From assembly GCA_017608345.1 (NCBI GenBank), contig JAFCGA010000001.1:33766-97765 (forward strand): 64,000 nucleotides of DNA, written 5' to 3'. A program made the translations under genes and the position numbers. Below the pieces are notes generated by a model. The model searched no databases, was not told the DNA's origin, and saw only the letters and a program-made list of their open reading frames with translations. Shown in pieces: positions 3,404 to 57,770 of the stretch (the first letter of the stretch is position 1; each line of letters starts with the position of its first letter). The DNA is from Candidatus Pacearchaeota archaeon. Its GTDB lineage: Archaea; Nanobdellota; Nanobdellia; UBA10117; JAFCGA01.

Positions 3404-3567
3404 GATCACTTATTTGTATTTACTCCGTTGTGTTATTTCTGAAGCGGAGCCGAACTTGTTCGGACCAGAAGCGTTAGCTTCTGGGCTTCAGATAGAATCT
3501 TCTTTGGGGCGCGGCGGGAACTTTCTTCTTAAGAAAGGGTCCGCTTTGTATAAACTATCCAGTGATC
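3404..3567. repeat. free-standing copy of the tRNA-intron-like structured element (three-way junction plus Y/R hairpin), bounded by the inverted 7-mers GATCACT/AGTGATC
   Basis: 3438-3492 folds as TCTGAAGC[CCGAAC-TTG-TTCGG][CCAGAAGC-GTTA-GCTTCTGG]GCTTCAGA. The reverse complement of 3495-3544 (GCGGACCCTTTCTTAAGAAGAAAGTTCCCGCCGCGCCCCAAAGAAGATTC) aligns with the tRNA-Pro T-loop insert, including an identical GTTCCCGCCGC. Confidence 0.6.
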
Positions 3568-3686: not shown

Positions 3687-4880
3687 ATGGATGATCAATC
3701 TTTCGGTACGGGATTCGAAACTATAGCTGACCCTGCAGATGATATTTTTTCTTCGCCCCCACCACAACAACAGCCACAACCGCAGCCAGTTTATCAAGCA
3801 GCTCCTATGCAGGCAGCTCCAATATCTGTTCGGGAACCTGGTAATTCTGAGTTAGAAGAAATACTTGCTAAAAAGAAAGCTAGAATTAAGGTAATCGGAG
3901 CAGGTGGCGCAGGTAATCACACTATTTCGAGAATATCTGAAGTGGGCGTGGTCGGCGCTGAAACTGTAGCAATTAACACTGACGCTCAGGATCTTTTGAG
4001 TAATGCTGCAGATAAGAAAATGCTAATCGGCAAAGAACTTACCGCAGGTCTTGGTGCAGGTTCAAATCCTCAAGTCGGTAAGGAAGCTGCTAAAGAATCT
4101 GAAAATGATATTAAAAATGTATTAAAAGAAGCACACATGGTTTTCCTAACTTGTGGGCTTGGAGGCGGAACCGGAACAGGTGCGCTTCCAGTTATCGCAG
4201 CAGTAGCTAAAAAACTAGGGATTCTGACTGTTGCCGTAGTTACACTTCCATTCACAATGGAAGGTCAGCTGAGACACGAAAACGCAATGGTCGGCCTTGA
4301 GGAACTCGAAGGACTTGTCGATACGTTAATAGTTATACCAAATGATAAGCTAATTGAATTAGCTCCAGATCTTCCCCTACATACTGCATTCAAAGTTGCG
4401 GATGAGATTCTAACCAATGCAGTTAAAGGAATTGCAGAGCTGATCACAAAGCCAGGTCTTATTAATTTAGATTTTGCAGATATTAGAGCAGTTATGTCTT
4501 CTGGCGGAATTGCAATGATTGGTGTCGGAGAGAGCGATACTGAGAATCGTGCAATTGAGTGCGTTGAGAAAGCTATTTCTAACCCGTTGCTGGATATTGA
4601 TATTTCTGGAGCAAATGGCGCGTTGATTAATGTTGCTGGCGGTCCGTCTATGACTTTAGAGGAAGCTCGACAAGTAGTAGAGACTGTGACAGGTAAGCTA
4701 GACGATTCAGCTAAAATTATCTGGGGAGCTCAGGTGCAGCCGGACTTGCAGAATACTATCCGAGTCATGCTAGTAATTGTGGGTGTTAAATCACCGCAAA
4801 TCTTCGGACCTAAGCGGACGTTCTCTCAAAAGAGAAAAACAGAACTAGCTGACGATTTAGGGATTAAATTCGTTGACTGA
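3687..4880 (+). CDS. ftsZ: cell division GTPase FtsZ with a Q/P-rich N-terminal extension
   Basis: [10 protein letters not shown] and the tubulin signature [13 protein letters not shown]. The C-terminal domain is typical of FtsZ. Confidence 0.95.
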
Positions 4881-4900
4881 CCAACCCTATTTCTTTGCCA

Positions 4901-5062
4901 TTTTCTTTCTTTTGCAAAACCAGAGCGGAATGAAATTCCGCTTGGCCAACCGGAACTAGTTCCGGTCTGGAGAAAGAATTAGGCGTCCAAAGAAAGAAAA
5001 GCATATTTCTCCGCGACTGCGTCGCGTCAATAATAATCGCTCACTCATCAGTTCGCTCTAGC
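4901..5062. repeat. free-standing intron-like structured element between convergent genes
   Basis: Y-tract 4901-4914 (TTTTCTTTCTTTTG) pairs with R-tract 4988-5001 (CAAAGAAAGAAAAG) around the twin hairpin 4920-4970. That hairpin is about 47/50 identical to the reverse complement of 57276-57325, which lies inside the tRNA-Ala(GGC) D-loop insert. 5036-5062 (CGCTCACTCATCAGTTCGCTC) matches the sense strand of the 26903-26925 element. Confidence 0.65.
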
Positions 5063-5095
5063 GAATCGGGGCGATTCGCGCTTAGAGTGGTTGAG

Positions 5096-5473
5096 TTAGT
5101 TATGTTTTTTTACTCGCAGTTTCCTACTCTTTTTTTGGCTAAGCCAGGAGAACTGTTTTAATAGATTATTTGTAATTTTGCATAGGTTTTGTGGGTCGCT
5201 AGTAATTACGTTTATTTTTGGGAAGTTATCATCACAAGTTGTTATTTCAAGTGCTGCTTCTATTCCGTGTAAGCTTATGAAGTATTGTTTGTGACTAGCG
5301 GAGTATGCATTTACATTTTGAGAGCCTATTTGGTGGGCATTTCTAGATAAAAAGGCATATAACTCAGCGCCTTCGTAATCTTCACAACGTATACCGAACA
5401 GAAGTGATAGTTGATGCATTGGTTTTGTATGACCCCCTAATGTTTTTGAGTAGTATGTTTTCATATAATTCAC
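5096..5473 (-). CDS. hypothetical protein (125 aa), last gene of the NurA operon
   Basis: ORF in the track, on the same strand as and 58 nt downstream of the NurA-like gene. No motif recognised. Confidence 0.4.
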   Translation of the reverse strand: MNYMKTYYSKTLGGHTKPMHQLSLLFGIRCEDYEGAELYAFLSRNAHQIGSQNVNAYSASHKQYFISLHGIEAALEITTCDDNFPKINVITSDPQNLCKITNNLLKQFSWLSQKKSRKLRVKKHN

Positions 5474-5531
5474 TCAGAAAGGGGTCTTAAAAACTTTACT
5501 ATTTATAGTTACGCTATGTATAGCGTTTTTA

Positions 5532-6614
5532 TCAGAAGGGACGTATCTCTCTTCTCAGCTCAAATAAACTTGGATTTCTCCCAAGTTTTTCATTCAAAGC
5601 AGATTTAAAGACCATAATTTCCTGTTCTCGCAACTTGGCTCGGCCGTCAGCTTCTATTAGAACTGAGGGATAGGAATAACTGCGATTCTGTCGGGAGATC
5701 TCAAAGATTGTCGAGGCAACTTGCTCGGGGTCGCCGATGAAGTCTAGGCGCATAGGTCGGTCGTATTCAACTGCTTTGATGTACATAGCTCTCACAGCTT
5801 CGCTCCACTTGCCGATCTCGCGCATGACTGGTAGTTCGGCTCGCGAGGAGGAGTACTCGAAGTCTTCTGTCCGCCAGCCAGCTTGCAAGAAGTAGAAAAG
5901 AAAGAGCGTATCTGTTGTGCGATCCAATACTGGCAAGAGCTCACTGAGTTCTTTTTTTATCTCCTCTGGAAGGGCAGCTTCAGAAAATCTCTGCTTTAGC
6001 AAGCTGCAGTACTTTGTTCCTTTGCAGTCTTCAATTGCGCCGATCAGCAGGATATTGTTCTTTGTGCAATATTCGTAGAGCTCAATATATTGGTTAATAA
6101 CTTTCTCGTAGAGCGGCTGAACTTTAGAATCCTTGTCAGGCACGCTAGAAGGATGAAGTACAATCGAGCCGTCGGCGACTAGCACATCTGGCTGCAATTC
6201 TTTAGCAGCTTTTAGCTGAGTTGCTAATTCCATTTCAACGCGTCGTAAGCTAGCGAGTGTAGAAAACTCTGCGGAATTGAATTCAGATCCAATTATAATT
6301 GGTTCTGGCTGAGGTCGGCGGGAAGGGAAATAATCTGTCTTGACTAATTTATTTTGTTTATAGTGAAAGCAAGCTGCTACAGCTCTTCGAAGAATTAGAC
6401 CCATTCCGTGATATTCTTTAGCTAGAAATCCGCCATCTACTCCGCAGATCTTATTGTTGAGTTCGATTGGCTTGATTTGCTTTGCTAAGCTTGGAAAAAG
6501 TTTTAGAGAATCAACTTTTTTGAGTAGTTTTGCTAGCTCGGAGCGGTTTTTAGCTAAGTCATTGATGTGTTGAGCTATCTGATTAATGGTGTCTTCCATC
6601 GAATATTGGGTCAA
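5532..6614 (-). CDS. nurA: NurA-domain 5'-3' nuclease
   Basis: KICGVDGGFLAKE (N-terminal catalytic Asp motif), VLVADGSIVLHPS, LDRTTDTLFLFYFLQAGWRTEDF and SYPSVLIEADGRAKL follow the NurA motif order. Confidence 0.7.
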   Translation of the reverse strand: MTQYSMEDTINQIAQHINDLAKNRSELAKLLKKVDSLKLFPSLAKQIKPIELNNKICGVDGGFLAKEYHGMGLILRRAVAACFHYKQNKLVKTDYFPSRRPQPEPIIIGSEFNSAEFSTLASLRRVEMELATQLKAAKELQPDVLVADGSIVLHPSSVPDKDSKVQPLYEKVINQYIELYEYCTKNNILLIGAIEDCKGTKYCSLLKQRFSEAALPEEIKKELSELLPVLDRTTDTLFLFYFLQAGWRTEDFEYSSSRAELPVMREIGKWSEAVRAMYIKAVEYDRPMRLDFIGDPEQVASTIFEISRQNRSYSYPSVLIEADGRAKLREQEIMVFKSALNEKLGRNPSLFELRREIRPF

Positions 6615-25268: not shown

Positions 25269-26066
25269 ATGCAGAGCCCCTTTAATAAACCGCAGAATCC
25301 ATCACATCCTTCTGGCACTGGCAGAATTAAGTGGGAGGTCATTTTCCAGCTGATAAATTTCATACTATTGATAGTAATTGTTTTTTTCGTTATACCTCGG
25401 TCCCAAATATCAACGGAGGATGTGCTTACGGGAAATGCTGCTAAGGTTGAAGTGGTAGAGCCGGTTGAAGAGCCAGAACCTGAGAAAGTGGAGGAACCCG
25501 TAGTAGAAGATAAATCGGGGATGGTTTGCAATAAGCCCTATATCGTTGTAGGCAATGATTGCTGCTTAGATAAAGATGGTAATTCAATATGCGACAAGGA
25601 TGAGACTACCGCAATCTCGTTAACTGCTGAAGATGTCAAAGCTATTGCGTTAGATAGCGCTGAGGAGGAAATAGCTGCTTCTGATTCAGATTGCCATCTA
25701 GCTCATGAGGGTTTTAATCAACCAGACTTTAGTCTGCGATTCGAATTAGGCGAGGCTAAAATAGCGTCGATTAAACGAGAAGTAGATTCAGGTTGGGCAG
25801 TTTTTGAGCTAGTCATACAGCCGACTGAAGAAGGACGACTGCATTGCGATGCTGCAGAGTACTATAATAATGTTCCCATTGAAGAATTTGAAATAGATAA
25901 TATACATACTACTCGAGAAGTCGAGCCAATGGACGAAGAAGGAACGCGACTAGTCAACTATCGCGTGACTTGCTATAACGCTAAAGAGTATGAGTATAAG
26001 GACACCTGCGATACAATAAAGTCTAAATTCAAAAGCGGGACGCTACTTATAGAGTATGAAGATTAA
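25269..26066 (+). CDS. membrane-anchored Cys-rich hypothetical protein (265 aa)
   Basis: N-terminal TM segment FQLINFILLIVIVFFVI, then an acidic linker and a Cys-containing ectodomain. Its stop codon abuts the 3' end of tRNA-Thr. Confidence 0.5.
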   Translation: MQSPFNKPQNPSHPSGTGRIKWEVIFQLINFILLIVIVFFVIPRSQISTEDVLTGNAAKVEVVEPVEEPEPEKVEEPVVEDKSGMVCNKPYIVVGNDCCLDKDGNSICDKDETTAISLTAEDVKAIALDSAEEEIAASDSDCHLAHEGFNQPDFSLRFELGEAKIASIKREVDSGWAVFELVIQPTEEGRLHCDAAEYYNNVPIEEFEIDNIHTTREVEPMDEEGTRLVNYRVTCYNAKEYEYKDTCDTIKSKFKSGTLLIEYED

Positions 26067-26207
26067 GCCCCCAATGGGAGTTGAACCCATGACCTATGGT
26101 TTAATTGGAGCTCCCTTCTTTTCTTTTCCCGAGGGTTTTCTTTTCTTTGGGAAGAAAAGAAAAGGCTCTTACAAAACCATCGCTCTACCAGGCTGAGCTA
26201 TGGAGGC
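26066..26207 (-). tRNA. tRNA-Thr(UGU) with a 68-nt intron at the canonical 37/38 site (26102-26169)
   Basis: The minus strand folds as GCCTCCA TA GCTC AGCCTGGTA GAGC G ATGGT TTTGTA[intron]A ACCAT AGGTC ATGGG TTCAACT CCCAT TGGGGGC T. It is 74 nt after intron removal. Confidence 0.85.
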
Positions 26208-26701: not shown

Positions 26702-26870
26702 TGGACCGACCCGGATTCGAACCGGGGATCCTCGCGATGTAAACGCGATGTCATAACCAGATTGTCTTACTGCACGATTCATATTTTCGAGCGAAGCGAG
26801 CAAGACGCCTTTCTTTTAGCACCTTAGCTTTTCTTTCGCGAAAGAAAAGGCAGTTCTAGACCATCGGTCC
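26702..26870 (-). tRNA. tRNA-Val(UAC) with an insert of about 92 nt in the D-loop
   Basis: The minus strand folds as GGACCGA TG GTC TAGAA[insert]TCTGGTTAT GAC A TCGCG TTTACAT CGCGA GGATC CCCGG TTCGAAT CCGGG TCGGTCC A. Confidence 0.75.
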
Positions 26871-26879
26871 ACTAATTTG

Positions 26880-27068
26880 CTCACGTGGACTTTTGTTCTG
26901 TAGCGAGCTGATGAGCGAGCGTTTATTTCGAAGCTCCGTAGGAGTTGAGCAAACTGCTTCTCTTTGGGGCTACTCAACTTTGTTGAGTCCCCAAACTCGT
27001 TTGGGCTACCTTACCACCTTTCTCTTCGCAAGAGAAAGGGGGCAGCGACCAATCGGTCCACTACTATT
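26880..27068 (-). pseudogene. tRNA-Val-like 5' fragment fused to an intron-like element (leader or pseudo-tRNA)
   Basis: The minus strand starts AGTGGACCGATTGGTC, versus AGTGGACCGATGGTC for tRNA-Val. This is followed by GCTGCC-CCTTTCTCTT-GCGA-AGAGAAAGG, the hairpins CCCAAAC/GTTTGGG and ACTCAAC/GTTGAGT, then CCCCAAAGAGAAGC...CTCCTACGGAGC, which is homologous to the tRNA-Ala(GGC) D-loop insert. I could not build any anticodon or T arm. Confidence 0.35.
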
Positions 27069-29637: not shown

Positions 29638-29689
29638 TGTAAATCTTTGATTTTCAATTCCACAGAAATTGCTGAGCAATTTCGTGGAT

Positions 29690-29739
29690 CCACGGAACTT
29701 CGTTCCGTTGGTCCCAAAAATCCGCCCGAGGATTTTTGG
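29690..29739. repeat. twin hairpin in the tyrS-gltX spacer
   Basis: CCACGGAAC-TTC-GTTCCGTTGG followed by CCAAAAATCC-GCCCGA-GGATTTTTGG. The first hairpin resembles the CCGGAAC-NN-GTTCCGG module of the tRNA inserts. Confidence 0.45.
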
Positions 29740-29781
29740 TTATAAAACTAAAAATGAGACCGTTGTATTTAAATTCAACGG

Positions 29782-31136: not shown

Positions 31137-31547
31137 TTATCTCACCTCAGTCCCGCGGGCCGGAGTTGCACCAGCAGCCTCTCGGTCTACGGCCGAGCGC
31201 TCTTCTAACTGCTCCAACCGTTTCTTATTTCCGAGCGAAGCGAGCAAGACGCCTTTCTTTTGGCATCTTAGCTTTTCTTTCGCGAAAGAAAAGGCAGATT
31301 GAGCTACCGCGGGAAGAATTAATTCACCAGTATGAGTTAGAGAAATTAGCTTACTATCGCCGAAGCTGATTAGTCTCTTATTTCTGAGCTGGCGAAGATT
31401 ATGCCAGCCAGTTGATTTAGGTAAGTTTAGAGAAGCGACAAATTGTGATGCAGTTAGTAAGTCATTATCTGCGATTGCGAATAAAAGCTTACGCTGAAGA
31501 TCAGGTATATTATTAGAAATTAATTCGCAGAGGATACGGATGATCAC
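31137..31547 (-). CDS. winged-helix (HTH) protein ORF whose C-terminal 58 codons run through tRNA-Tyr
   Basis: The first 78 aa (…LTASQFVASLNLPKSTGWHNLRQLRNKRLISFGDSKLISLTHTGEL) look like a wHTH. There is no in-frame stop before 31137. Confidence 0.4.
   Translation of the reverse strand: MIIRILCELISNNIPDLQRKLLFAIADNDLLTASQFVASLNLPKSTGWHNLRQLRNKRLISFGDSKLISLTHTGELILPAVAQSAFSFAKEKLRCQKKGVLLASLGNKKRLEQLEERSAVDREAAGATPARGTEVR
31151..31313 (-). tRNA. tRNA-Tyr(GUA) with an insert of about 87 nt in the D-loop
   Basis: The minus strand folds as CCCGCGG TA GCTC AATC[insert]GAGC G CTCGG CCGTAGA CCGAG AGGCT GCTGG TGCAACT CCGGC CCGCGGG A. The archaeal Tyr identity pair C1:G72 is present. Position 33 reads C rather than U. 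Confidence 0.75.
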
Positions 31548-31720
31548 CCATCAAAAATTTAGAGCTATGGCTAGGGATTTCGTTACTAACAGTACCGACA
31601 CTCACCTGCTATGTCTGGTGAGCTATCGGAATTTATTCCGATTTGATCGCCTATATTTATCATACTACTTCAATAGCGAGCGGATTTAAAAAGCTTTTGT
31701 GCAACGATTTTTGTATAATT

Positions 31721-34366: not shown

Positions 34367-34426
34367 TTAAGGAGATTGCAGTTCTAAAAACTTGCTGAGC
34401 ACTTTAAGGGAGTAGATTTTGTTTAG

Positions 34427-34728
34427 TGGACCGGCCGGGATTTTCTGAAGGACAAATAGACCAAAGTATTTTGGTTTTACCAACTTCAGGGAGGTTGGTA
34501 CACCTTGGTTGGCTATATTTGAGTTGAAGGAACTTCAACTCCAGCCAGACAATGTGCTAGGGGGTCTTGCCCTTACTTTGAACCCGGGGCCTTCTACGTG
34601 CGAGGCAGACGCTCTACCGCTTCAGCAGCGTTTTCTTATTTTCCGAGCGCAAGCGAGAAAGAATTTTTCTTTTTCGCCAACGTTTTTCTTTTGTTAAAAG
34701 AAAAAGGCTGTGGCTGAGCTACCGGCCC
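34427..34728 (-). tRNA. tRNA-Ala(CGC), 302 nt, with a D-loop insert (about 90 nt) and a T-loop insert (about 136 nt)
   Basis: The minus strand folds as GGGCCGG TA GCTC AGCCA[34621-34710]GCGGTA GAGC G TCTGC CTCGCAC GTAGA AGGCC CCGGG TTCAAA[34441-34576]T CCCGG CCGGTCC A. G3:U70 is present, and the gene is 76 nt after removing the inserts. Confidence 0.75.
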
Positions 34729-34832
34729 ACTACTTATTCGCAGTCACTAACTATTTTATGTAAGGGATATTATAAAGATTATGTATCGCTAGAAATCTTC
34801 GGACTTCTGGAATTACAAATCAAATATTAGCA

Positions 34833-54846: not shown

Positions 54847-55069
54847 GGGGCTATGGTGTAGCTAGAGCTTAAGTATTGCTTTAGTTCCTACAATGGCTAG
54901 CATCGCAGGTTTGGGACCTGCAGACCCCAGTTCAAAGCGGAGCCTTTTCTTTTGCTAAAAGAAAAGTTCCCGCCGCTCTCCAAAAGAAAAGCGTATTGCT
55001 CGCTTCGCTCGAGAATATTGCCTTTGGCAAGTTAGGAGATGTCGGCACTTGAAAATCTGGGTAGCCCCA
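54847..55069 (+). tRNA. tRNA-Pro(UGG) with a D-loop insert (about 31 nt) and a T-loop insert (about 119 nt)
   Basis: Folds as GGGGCTA TG GTGT AGC[54863-54893]TGGCTA GCAT C GCAGG TTTGGGA CCTGC AGAC CCCAG TTCAAA[54937-55055]T CTGGG TAGCCCC A. It is 73 nt after removing the inserts. Confidence 0.75.
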
Positions 55070-55074
55070 TTGAT

Positions 55075-55213
55075 GCGCCCGTGGTCTAGTGGTACGCGCT
55101 AAAAATCCGTGCACTAAATGACTCAAGCTTGCCAAGCTTGCAACCCGAGTTCAAATTCGGACTGGTTCGAATTACTGCGAGAACTTGTTCGATCGGAAAT
55201 CTCGGCGGGCGCA
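55075..55213 (+). tRNA. tRNA-Gly(GCC) with a D-loop insert (about 24 nt) and a T-loop insert (about 44 nt)
   Basis: Folds as GCGCCCG TG GTCT AGTGGTA[55095-55118]TGAC T CAAGC TTGCCAA GCTTG CAAC CCGAG TTCAAAT[insert]CTCGG CGGGCGC A. It is 71 nt after removing the inserts and starts 5 nt after tRNA-Pro. Confidence 0.75.
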
Positions 55214-55297
55214 TTTTATGTAACTACTATTGTATACTTAAACAAATATATAAATGAGCGTATACTTATTTCTAATAACATCTATAGAGGTGCTAAG

Positions 55298-55767: not shown

Positions 55768-55974
55768 GGGCCGTTAGCTCAGAGCCTTTTTCTTTCTTTC
55801 CCAAAGAAAGAAAAACCCTCGGGAAAAAGAAAGAACGGGAACGCGAGCAATCTGGTCATATTCCGTCAGGAATATTCCTGGACGGAGTACTGGAAAGAGC
55901 ACTTGGCTCTTAACCAAGGTGTCGAGGGTTCAAAGCTGCCAAATATTAAGCAGTAGAAAATCCCTTACGGCCCG
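55768..55974 (+). tRNA. tRNA-Lys(CUU) with a D-loop insert (about 105 nt) and a T-loop insert (26 nt)
   Basis: Folds as GGGCCGT TA GCTC AG[about 55783-55887]..CTGGAAA GAGC A CTTGG CTCTTAA CCAAG GTGTC GAGGG TTCAAA[55935-55960]T CCCTT ACGGCCC G. TTATAAAT lies 25-32 nt upstream. Confidence 0.8.
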
Positions 55975-57241: not shown

Positions 57242-57587
57242 GGGCCGGTAGTTCAGCCAGCGGATCCCTTGCTCTCCAGACCGGAACAAGTTCCGGTTGG
57301 CCACGCGGAATTTCATTCCGCTTGGTGCAAAGAGAAAGGTCTACGCATCACCCCAAAGAGAAGCGTATTCCTTCGCTCCTTCGGAGCTCAAAAATAAAGA
57401 GATTTGCCTGAAACGGTAGAACGCTACATTGGCAGAGCCTTTTTCTCTTTCCAGAAAGAGAAAAACGTTCGCGAAAAAGAGAAAGCGAACATGGGTTTCA
57501 GACTTGTAGAGGCCCCGAGTTCAAATAGCCTTTCTTTCCTGAATGAAAGAACGAATTTCAGAGGCTAGGAAAATCTCGGCCGGTCCA
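57242..57587 (+). tRNA. tRNA-Ala(GGC), 346 nt, with three inserts: D-loop (about 153 nt), canonical 37/38 (69 nt) and T-loop (about 48 nt)
   Basis: Folds as GGGCCGG TA GTTC AGCC..[insert]..GGTA GAAC G CTACA TTGGCA[57435-57503]T TGTAG AGGCC CCGAG TTCAAA[about 57526-57573]T CTCGG CCGGTCC A. G3:U70 is present, and the gene is 76 nt after removing the inserts. Confidence 0.75.
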
Positions 57588-57683
57588 CTAATAACTTTTT
57601 TAAAGTGCTTAATCTTAGAATTAATTATGCAGAGATTATGCAAAAAAAGGTTTTTGCTAGATCTCAGCACTCACTACGTTCGT

Positions 57684-57769
57684 GCCGAGATAGCTCAGCT
57701 GGTAGAGCGCCAGTTTAATAGGCGAATCTCATAAGCTGGAGGTCGGGAGTTCGAGCCTCCCTCTCGGCA
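57684..57769 (+). tRNA. tRNA-Met/Ile2(CAU), elongator type, with a 13-nt insert at the 31/32 boundary
   Basis: Folds as GCCGAGA TA GCTC AGCTGGTA GAGC G CCAGT[TTAATAGGCGAAT]CTCATAA GCTGG AGGTC GGGAG TTCGAGC CTCCC TCTCGGC A. Confidence 0.8.
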
Positions 57770-57770
57770 C

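Follow-up and report, generated by a model that had tools for sequence, protein, structure and literature searches.

A structured element between ftsZ and a convergent orphan ORF carries tRNA-intron modules without exons in a Woesearchaeota-like archaeon

The 64-kb stretch of DNA analyzed here (hereafter, the window; GC content 39.6%) encodes an FtsZ protein whose best named relatives come from Candidatus Woesearchaeota and other DPANN archaea, the nearest sequence being 82% identical. The ftsZ ORF terminates in the conserved ...FVD* and is followed by a convergent orphan ORF, beyond which nurA is encoded (Table 1). The whole gap between ftsZ and the orphan ORF is denoted E. Its GC content is 47% overall and reaches 57% in an internal twin-hairpin cassette. 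The protein encoded by the orphan ORF belongs to no Pfam or NCBIfam family and has no homologues; an exhaustive search yielded just three matches, all weak and local, to long multi-stretch proteins (best E-value = 8e-12), and the one that was inspected resembles a low-complexity repeat. Neither the family searches nor the homologue searches linked this ORF to mobility.

The surroundings of ftsZ were compared among relatives. In three of them (L015, L017, and L020; 72-80% FtsZ identity), the gene order is FKBP-ftsZ-(small ORF)-Spt5/NusG-L11, where the small ORF is presumably secE, and no structured element follows ftsZ. The convergence of ftsZ and nurA is shared with two other relatives, L023 and L076. 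In L023, which has the closest FtsZ (82%), nurA ends in ...LFELRRELRPF* and its stop codon overlaps that of ftsZ by 2 nt; in L076, two unrelated small ORFs separate the two genes, and E is absent. Given that ftsZ and nurA abut tail to tail in L023, E is located in lineage-specific DNA. Judging from these relatives, the lineage-specific stretch amounts to 651 nt (4881-5531), taking in the orphan ORF and a 58-nt spacer along with E. Protein identity to the relatives is just 64-82%, so that none of them provides a same-species empty site, and even the closest are too distant to be compared base by base. The variability of the junction itself (abutting genes in L023, inserted ORFs in L076) was counted against the interpretation of E that we favor. 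An apparent likeness of the right end of E to the DNA following ftsZ in L023 was rejected, this DNA being the coding end of nurA there. An inversion between the two twin hairpins of the window as the cause of the synteny break was unsupported as well: the genes near 57 kb are not secE, nusG, or L11.

Table 1. Features at the ftsZ-nurA junction and related elements elsewhere in the window
Feature	Position	Strand	Remarks
U, second exon-less intron-like element	3440-3560	- (sense)	Between FKBP gene and ftsZ promoter
ftsZ	3687-4880	+	Stop TGA at 4878-4880
E	4881-5095		215 nt
Terminal helix, left arm	4874-4886	+	TTGACTGA + CCAAC region; contains ftsZ stop TGA
Pyrimidine tracts	4889-4914	+	TATTTCTTTGCC, then ATTTTCTTTCTTTTG; TGCC + pyrimidine-tract start typical of the intron family
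Inverted stem-loop unit, ~73 nt	4904-4976	-	Copy at 57269-57340 in tRNA-Ala(GGC) D-loop intron
Twin-hairpin cassette	4920-4970	.	Outer stem CCAG/CTGG, two hairpins, and linker
Cassette hairpin 1	4925-4941		GCGGAAT-GAA-ATTCCGC
Cassette linker			Between the hairpins; palindromic TTGGCCA
Cassette hairpin 2	4949-4966		ACCGGAAC-TA-GTTCCGGT
Purine tract R1, spacer, purine tract R2	4971-5001	+	AGAAAGAA, TTAGGCGTC, CAAAGAAAGAAAAG
Module 2 core	5002-5039	+	CATATT, hairpin GCGAC-TGC-GTCGC (5013-5025), A/T-rich TCAATAATAATC
Box	5040-5060	+	CGCTCACTCATCAGTTCGCTC; reads CUGAUGAG on - strand
Terminal GC-rich hairpin	5057-5088	+	CTCTA-GCGAATC-GGGGC-GATTCGC-GCT-TAGAG
Terminal helix, right arm	5089-5102	+	GGTTG A GTTAGTTA; contains orphan-ORF stop
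T7 run	5105-5111	+	3 nt past terminal helix; first oligo-T of at least 5 nt downstream of ftsZ
Orphan ORF, 125 aa	5096-5473	-	Convergent to ftsZ; stop codon 5096-5098
nurA	5532-6614	-	Beyond orphan ORF
val_up, element just upstream of tRNA-Val(UAC)	26873-27066	-	Pyrimidine/purine hairpin, hairpin cluster, module 2, 5040-5060-type box, GTCCAC end
tRNA-Ala(GGC) gene	57242-57588		Contiguous, complete; three introns
tRNA-Ala(GGC) D-loop intron, 153 nt	57262-57414	+	Carries partner twin hairpin (57276-57325) and module 2 copy
tRNA-Ala(GGC) intron after anticodon	57435-57503		Textbook bulge-helix-bulge
tRNA-Ala(GGC) T-loop intron	57526-57572

E folds much better than shuffled sequences on both strands (z = -4.3 and -3.9). 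On the + strand, its ends pair in a 13-bp terminal helix composed of 8 bp (4874-4881/5095-5102) and 5 bp (4882-4886/5089-5093), with A5094 bulged and two G-U pairs; this helix is also present in the minimum free energy folds. Both of its arms include stop codons of the flanking host genes. The longest T-run inside E is 4 nt on either strand, and, upon inspection, neither flank showed a consensus TATA box. Given that E has no recognizable promoter of its own and that no T-run of at least 5 nt precedes 5105-5111, E is probably carried along passively in the ftsZ transcript, as its 3'UTR. Oligo-T is a termination signal for archaeal RNA polymerase, and T7 is the likely end of the joint transcript of ftsZ and E. 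This RNA is predicted to form a closed rod of about -72 kcal/mol, held by the 13-bp terminal helix and ending just before T7, so that E, as RNA, would at most provide a structure for the 3' end or for termination where two genes converge.

An Infernal scan against Rfam 15 assigned no family in or around E, at either gathering or permissive thresholds. The best match nearby, DUF805b at 5121-5147, scored 19.9 bits against a gathering threshold of 35.6 and lies inside the neighboring ORF. The - strand reading of the 5040-5060 box, CUGAUGAG, resembles a C box and was considered as part of a box C/D sRNA or a hammerhead. Both candidates were rejected: the Rfam sR16 model scored 15.6 bits against a gathering threshold of 70 (E-value = 1.5), and the hammerhead had no Rfam match. 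Box C/D sRNAs have C (RUGAUGA) and D (CUGA) boxes at their ends, usually with C' and D' boxes, and form k-turns; E contains this single C-box-like sequence, on the - strand only, without a D, C', or D' box, and its likeness to the box C/D sRNAs of archaeal tRNA introns goes no further. The initial annotation had found no tRNA exon pieces around E, and neither did we in 4800-5200, using ARAGORN and Rfam at gathering thresholds and at E-value <=10; window-wide, no tRNA or other RNA piece was detected that would explain E as an intron. A split tRNA was rejected likewise, as no tRNA half adjoins E and the tRNA-Ala(GGC) gene is uninterrupted by any such break.

Long introns are abundant in the tRNA genes of this genome and are assembled from recurrent modules. 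Read along the tRNA sense strand, they begin with (A/T)GCC and a pyrimidine tract, which a loop separates from the purine tract that pairs with it (R1). After a short spacer come another purine tract (R2), CRTATT, a segment or hairpin rich in GC, AAATAA, and the 3' junction. E contains these modules in full order. The TGCC that opens its first module lies 16 nt from the ftsZ stop codon, and the same start, TGCC or AGCC followed by a pyrimidine tract, was read directly in introns of tRNA-Val, tRNA-Tyr, tRNA-Ala, and a tRNA at 55.8 kb. The pyrimidine/purine clamp previously proposed between 4901-4914 and 4988-5001 is real but comprises 12 perfect base pairs (4901-4912/4989-5000), not 14. The R1-spacer-R2 segment of E aligns with five true tRNA introns and with two further elements, U and val_up, and a multiple alignment of R1-spacer-R2-CRTATT-AAATAA covers all of these. 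An nhmmer profile of module 2 (R2 to AAATAA) has seven matches in the window. Besides the copies in val_up and E, there are five in true introns, namely those of tRNA-Ala GGC, tRNA-Ala CGC, tRNA-Val UAC, tRNA-Tyr GUA, and a fifth tRNA, which ends near 55.06 kb. The intron and val_up copies are all sense to the adjacent tRNA, and that of E is found on the + strand only. With E left out of the profile, 4993-5013 (+) is the best non-training match in the window (E-value = 0.03-0.06). The arms of the module 2 hairpin in E differ from the CTCC/GGAG arms of tRNA-Ala and val_up, with pairing retained.

Further downstream, the motif matches reported in the initial annotation were borne out, both being real but modest. 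The similarity to the tRNA-Ala intron is colinear (43/71 between 4979-5045 and 57339-57405), and that to val_up amounts to 23/26 (5032-5057 versus 26927-26902). The only other copy of the 5040-5060 box in the window is in val_up (26902-26921). The GC-rich hairpin at 5057-5088, overlapped by an alternative hairpin, TTCGCT/AGCGAA, has no second copy in the 64 kb. On the + strand, E is colinear with both the tRNA-Ala D-loop intron and the sense strand of val_up; apart from the inverted unit described below, it shares the orientation of the introns, which makes the + strand, that of ftsZ, its family sense strand. E is thus homologous in sequence to genuine introns of its own genome; as E in its entirety is single-copy in 64 kb, its membership rests on the modules, of which two of three give individually weak matches (E-values ~0.03-0.06). 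Within the family, the D-loop introns of tRNA-Val and tRNA-Tyr are 94% identical (family D2). The pyrimidine-R1-CGTTGGCG-R2 design also occurs in tRNAs of the relative L020, which implies that the module family is older than this genome.

The strongest similarity between E and an intron is in the opposite orientation. The tRNA-Ala(GGC) gene consists of exons 57242-57261, 57415-57434, 57504-57525, and 57573-57588, which, when joined in silico, give a canonical tRNA-Ala(ggc) with G3:U70 (ARAGORN). Positions 4924-4973 of E and 57273-57322 of the D-loop intron form a 50-nt inverted repeat, 48/50 (96%) complementary, which is the longest in the window (blastn-short E-value = 1e-18). The match had been put at about 47/50 between 4920-4970 and the reverse complement of 57276-57325, where we found 47 identities and one 1-nt gap. 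When small gaps are allowed, the inverted similarity spans about 4904-4976 (~70/77). The inversion is therefore real, but the inverted part is larger than the twin hairpin that was claimed: it is a whole stem-loop that takes in the outer CCAG/CTGG stem, the TTGGCCA linker, and parts of the pyrimidine and purine arms with an asymmetric TGCAAA. Under covariance model R2, the cassette reaches 89.3 bits when read on the - strand, compared with 41.9 bits on the + strand. The unit is ~91% identical to its tRNA-Ala copy compared with ~61% for the colinear flank (Fisher p = 1.4e-5), a difference suggestive of a recent exchange of the unit. Selection for function could account for the near-identity instead; the two cassette copies differ at three spots, namely a loop, the linker, and an indel that leaves the outer stem paired. 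Whether the similarity is confined to this single pair has a divided answer. Neither the window nor any of the collections scanned contains a further near-identical twin hairpin, whereas weaker twin-hairpin relatives exist and the other modules are present in seven copies.

Alternatively, E might encode a functional structured RNA of its own, either a - strand RNA excised at a bulge-helix-bulge (BHB) and circularized or a + strand RNA whose flipped twin hairpin could form a ~50-nt duplex with the pre-tRNA-Ala(GGC) D-loop intron and thereby influence its splicing. We consider this very unlikely. The strong folding of both strands, the GC content above that of the window, and the sparing of paired positions by the differences between the cassette copies are all compatible with a functional RNA, and the 48/50 complementarity to the tRNA-Ala intron would be available if both + strands were transcribed. 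However, such complementarity arises trivially whenever a palindromic unit is flipped, and self-folding of each hairpin would come first. As for excision, the - strand contains a formal, strict h3-B3-H4-B3-h'4 motif spanning exactly 5087-4880, but a motif of the same quality is found in 13% of shuffled sequences. On the + strand, the BHB scan produced just the 13-bp helix with its 1-nt bulge and GU-rich candidates; the strict scan recovers the canonical anticodon intron of tRNA-Ala and misses the boundaries of D-loop and T-loop introns. A stand-alone RNA is further opposed by the lack of a consensus TATA box on either side, of an Rfam family match, and of homologues in the collections scanned that would indicate conservation.

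Two other loci help to place E. One is val_up, which includes a duplicated 5' end of the tRNA, TAGTGGACCGAT, and looks like a relic of a tRNA gene, combining a duplicated 5' exon piece (GGACCGATTGGTC), intron-like modules, and a GTCCAC that resembles the 3' end of an acceptor. By analogy, E could be the remnant of a tRNA gene downstream of ftsZ that lost its exons and left a D-loop-type intron behind. The 5040-5060 box, shared by E and val_up to the exclusion of the true introns, agrees with such an origin, and the ends of E pair as an acceptor stem would. Yet no tRNA-like piece is detectable even at E-value <=10, the short interval between the conserved ftsZ stop and the TGCC has no room for a promoter and a 5' exon, and none of the relatives examined has a tRNA gene at this junction. 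The lack of exon vestiges and the mere 16 nt ahead of the first module leave only a slim chance that E is a destroyed tRNA gene.

In the second locus, U, ~110 nt can be aligned to the T-loop intron of a tRNA near 54.9 kb, and U also folds strongly (z = -3.5). The FKBP-ftsZ spacer that holds U is 313 nt long here versus 64-88 nt in relatives, that is, ~230 nt longer, and the ftsZ promoter, GCAAAGTTTATAAAAAA, is conserved with L023. Lying in a lengthened but otherwise conserved spacer, U is the clearest sign that such elements insert outside tRNA genes.

Hairpin pairs also recur elsewhere. The window contains seven tandem GC-rich hairpin pairs compared with 0.2 expected from shuffled sequences (35-fold), both in introns and in intergenic DNA (3450-3485, 29665-29740, and 31600-31648), and several of these have a GGAAY/RTTCC dyad core in common. 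The cassette covariance model detects two weak further relatives, at 31600-31648 and 29657-29714 (E-values 0.006-0.02). The position of the hairpin pair varies relative to the core modules: E and tRNA-Ala carry it within the pyrimidine/R1 loop, val_up has it between R1 and R2, and in U it follows R2. This variation fits an independently inserted sub-unit. Conceivably, the hairpins act as DNA, either as REP-like extragenic palindromes or as CGGAAY-N2-3-RTTCCG sites recognized by a recombinase or another DNA-binding protein, and have entered tRNA introns only secondarily. Their excess over shuffles in several spacers as well as introns, the occurrence of either orientation (E versus tRNA-Ala; U on the - strand), and the common dyad core accord with this possibility, to which we nonetheless give little credence: just two copies are near-identical, the others are weak, and a G-U pair in the outer stem of the tRNA-Ala copy works only in sense-strand RNA. 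The REP/BIME class is characterized by a high copy number of one conserved sequence and an associated RAYT-type transposase. The hairpins of the window resemble this class in being short GC-rich palindromes that are clustered, intergenic, and found in both orientations; the copy number, two near-identical cassettes and two weak ones in 64 kb, is not high.

Mobility of E as a unit was evaluated along similar lines. E could be a MITE-like element or "intron-transposon" that enters tRNA loops and intergenic DNA, with the 13-bp helix serving as terminal inverted repeats (TIRs) and a putative enzyme moving it. The presence/absence pattern sought for MITEs was observed for E, by comparison with L023 and L076, and for U, by the length of its spacer. 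The lineage-specific presence of E at the ftsZ/nurA junction, the ~230 extra nt that U represents in a conserved spacer, the TIR-like arms (4874-4886 and 5089-5102), a 12-nt direct repeat, TAGTGGACCGAT, flanking val_up, the 94% identity of the D-loop introns of two tRNAs, Val and Tyr, and the intron transposition inferred for tRNA genes of Thermoproteales (Fujishima et al. 2010, per PMC4033280) would all be accounted for. Against it, the window holds no second full-length copy of E; only modules recur, the ends are unique, and the best relatives of the individual parts sit at different loci. The search for a target-site duplication yielded a flanking direct repeat, GTTGACTGA/GTTGAGTTA, that is just 7/9 identical, and the supposed TIR arms consist of the stop-codon regions of two host genes. 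The public collections scanned contained no copies either: exact twin-hairpin patterns gave 14 matches in GTDB genomes, all of them chance matches in actinomycetes, and none in JGI metagenomes or viral contigs; an exact pattern for the 3' box retrieved 50 metagenomic matches, all unrelated coding or high-GC sequence; and BLAST of E against phage and plasmid collections returned no match. On balance, a mobile unit of this kind is unlikely, and a classical MITE does not describe E, which as a whole is single-copy and mosaic.

With moderate confidence, we therefore interpret E as an exon-less mosaic copy, made at the DNA level, of a lineage-specific family of tRNA-intron modules; E would serve at most as a 3'-end structure in the ftsZ transcript. 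The statement of the initial annotation that the modules exist outside tRNA genes is upheld, E having the full intron module order with neither exons nor an Rfam family. Of the three origins proposed there, a DNA-level repeat or insertion is favored by the location of E in DNA absent from the nearest relatives and of U in a longer spacer, a destroyed tRNA gene is disfavored, and a stand-alone RNA, with no promoter of its own and no homologues, is without support. The mosaic would consist of an older, diverged intron-like frame, a recently exchanged and flipped stem-loop, a val_up-type box, and the unique terminal hairpin. Dispersed copies may have traded modules through recombination, gene conversion, or template switching at palindromes, which would account for the presence of a stem-loop that is flipped and was recently exchanged in a frame that is older and diverged. 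Copies could persist in tRNA loops, where the splicing endonuclease would be able to remove them, and in intergenic spacers, where they would be harmless. We tentatively extend this scheme to suggest that the long tRNA introns of this Woesearchaeota lineage might be copies of a family of self-folding elements, propagated as DNA to wherever an insertion is tolerated. Equally tentatively, copies in tRNA loops might survive via splicing, those in spacers might be solo copies (E and U), and the twin-hairpin stem-loop might hop and flip independently.

Non-canonical tRNA introns that are cut by the splicing endonuclease, can number several per tRNA, and have sequence in common across tRNA genes have been described in Thermoproteales and interpreted as the result of intron transposition (Fujishima et al. 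2010, summarized in PMC4033280). These introns are the nearest known counterpart of E, which resembles them in having modules of bona fide D-loop and T-loop introns, near-identical pieces common to unrelated loci, and self-pairing ends. It differs from BHB introns of tRNA genes in the absence of flanking exons, with nothing to splice and no convincing BHB found on the family sense strand; lacking exons, it fails the defining test of an intron. The host is also different, a Woesearchaeota-like DPANN archaeon, and the reviews consulted describe intron copies in other tRNA genes only, not in intergenic DNA. Our literature search turned up no account of tRNA-intron sequences present as exon-less copies in intergenic DNA, and none of introns of this kind in Woesearchaeota.

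The next closest case is a model proposed for Caldiarchaeum subterraneum, in which integration of a mobile element creates an intron along with tRNA fragments (PMC3293823). That case is comparable in that lineage-specific DNA lies beside duplicated tRNA pieces (here, in val_up) and intron gain is tied to insertion or recombination at the DNA level. The Caldiarchaeum element is 1.8 kb in size and encodes a recombinase, whereas E is 215 nt long and non-coding, without a tRNA fragment or a nearby integrase. MITEs and REP/BIME elements occur in either orientation, often between convergent genes, and can act as 3'-end structures (PMC3184786, PMC3733652). Like these, E is short, structured, non-coding, and intergenic, with inverted-repeat ends. 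Unlike them, it is a single-copy mosaic with no clear target-site duplication and a near-identical cassette in two copies in 64 kb, and the same modules function here as tRNA introns; without repeated full-length copies, E fails the defining test of a MITE.

So far, the evidence on how archaeal tRNA genes gain protein-spliced introns has been indirect, consisting of the similar introns of Thermoproteales and the single integration model for Caldiarchaeum. In the present genome, modules that make up introns also occur without exons in intergenic DNA, at sites that are lineage-specific by comparison with relatives, one sub-unit being 96% identical between the two settings. If the long introns are indeed spreading elements, E would be a direct snapshot of archaeal tRNA intron gain, and, should the same hold genome-wide, this uncultured DPANN lineage would offer a concrete system for testing introns as selfish repeats. 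The findings also bear on annotation. ARAGORN and the Rfam/Infernal tRNA models missed most of the tRNA genes in the window, and repeats of this kind may break metagenome assemblies.

At least seven tRNA genes within the 64 kb carry long introns, which occupy D-loop, anticodon-loop, or T-loop positions and number up to three per gene. The only tRNA gene that ARAGORN reported in the window is an eighth, short-intron one (57684-57770), and Rfam detected just three tRNA genes; most tRNAs of this organism would escape standard annotation.

Intron-bearing tRNA genes, intron-like elements, and repeated motifs (window coordinates unless a contig is named)
Feature	Position	Strand	Remark
Intron-bearing tRNA gene	57242-57588	+	
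Intron-bearing tRNA gene	34423-34736	-	
Intron-bearing tRNA gene	~31150-31320	-	
Intron-bearing tRNA gene	~54890-55065	+	
Intron-bearing tRNA gene	~55075-55215	+	
Intron-bearing tRNA gene	55768-~55960	+	
Intron-bearing tRNA gene	26066-26207	-	
tRNA-Val(UAC) and preceding element	26702-27066	-	
U, exon-less intron-like element	3440-3560	- (family sense)	Between FKBP gene and ftsZ promoter
Pyrimidine tract and two purine tracts	26113-26163		
Pyrimidine tract and two purine tracts	55788-55838		
Pyrimidine tract and two purine tracts	57440-57490		
Pyrimidine tract and two purine tracts	34660-34712		
Pyrimidine tract and two purine tracts	L020 740-800		Relative's contig
Intergenic cluster of two or three GC-rich hairpins	29657-29740		
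Intergenic cluster of two or three GC-rich hairpins	31600-31648		

Sequences are shared between these introns. The D-loop introns of tRNA-Val(UAC) (26775-26853) and tRNA-Tyr(GUA) (31219-31297) are 94% identical over 79 nt in unrelated tRNAs, an identity that points to recent copying of an intron between tRNA genes. Many introns also have a single pyrimidine tract and, after it, two nearly identical purine tracts with a short GC motif (CCCTCGGG, CGTTCGCG, or CGTTGGCG) between them; the CGTTGGCG form is also present in L020, a relative whose FtsZ is just 76% identical. This arrangement may allow alternative pairing or a triple helix.

The tRNA-Val(UAC) gene, with a D-loop intron of ~92 nt, was barely detected by Rfam (30.1 bits). 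Just upstream is an element of ~190 nt, which begins with a duplicate of the 5' end of this tRNA and ends with GTCCAC; the 12-nt direct repeat TAGTGGACCGAT is located at about 27066-27055 and 26876-26865. The sole TATA-like box lies upstream of the duplicated 5' end, and the element looks like a decayed tandem copy that now serves as a long 5' leader.

The tRNA near 54.9 kb has a T-loop intron to which element U is homologous; U also carries a twin hairpin (GC-rich hairpin pair) of its own, closed by the stem CTGAAGC/GCTTCAG. The FKBP-ftsZ spacer that holds U spans 313 nt, compared with 64-88 nt in relatives. U and E, the exon-less intron-like element downstream of ftsZ, thus bracket this gene and are oriented opposite to each other.

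The tail-to-tail junction of ftsZ and nurA is variable: in the relatives' contigs, the two stop codons overlap by 2 nt (L023, 1339-1342) or two unrelated small ORFs intervene (L076, 4192-4803), and in the window (4881-5531) the junction contains E and an orphan ORF of 122/125 aa, which has a TATA-like box of its own, CTATAAATAG (about 5499-5508, - strand). A weak Rfam match to DUF805b RNA inside this ORF (5121-5147, - strand; 19.9 bits, gathering threshold 35.6; E = 0.003 for a search of 400 nt and 0.49 for the whole window) is probably due to chance. L023 itself, from the closest relative, is a 1375-nt Logan contig that begins within the FKBP gene and stops 33 nt past the ftsZ stop codon; such short contigs may result from assembly breaks at repeats of the kinds seen in the window.

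The two intergenic hairpin clusters, one of them located between two aminoacyl-tRNA synthetase genes and the other near tRNA-Tyr, include the hairpin ACGGAAC-TTC-GTTCCGT and weakly match the covariance model of the twin hairpin (E = 0.017 for 29657-29740 and 0.006 for 31600-31648).
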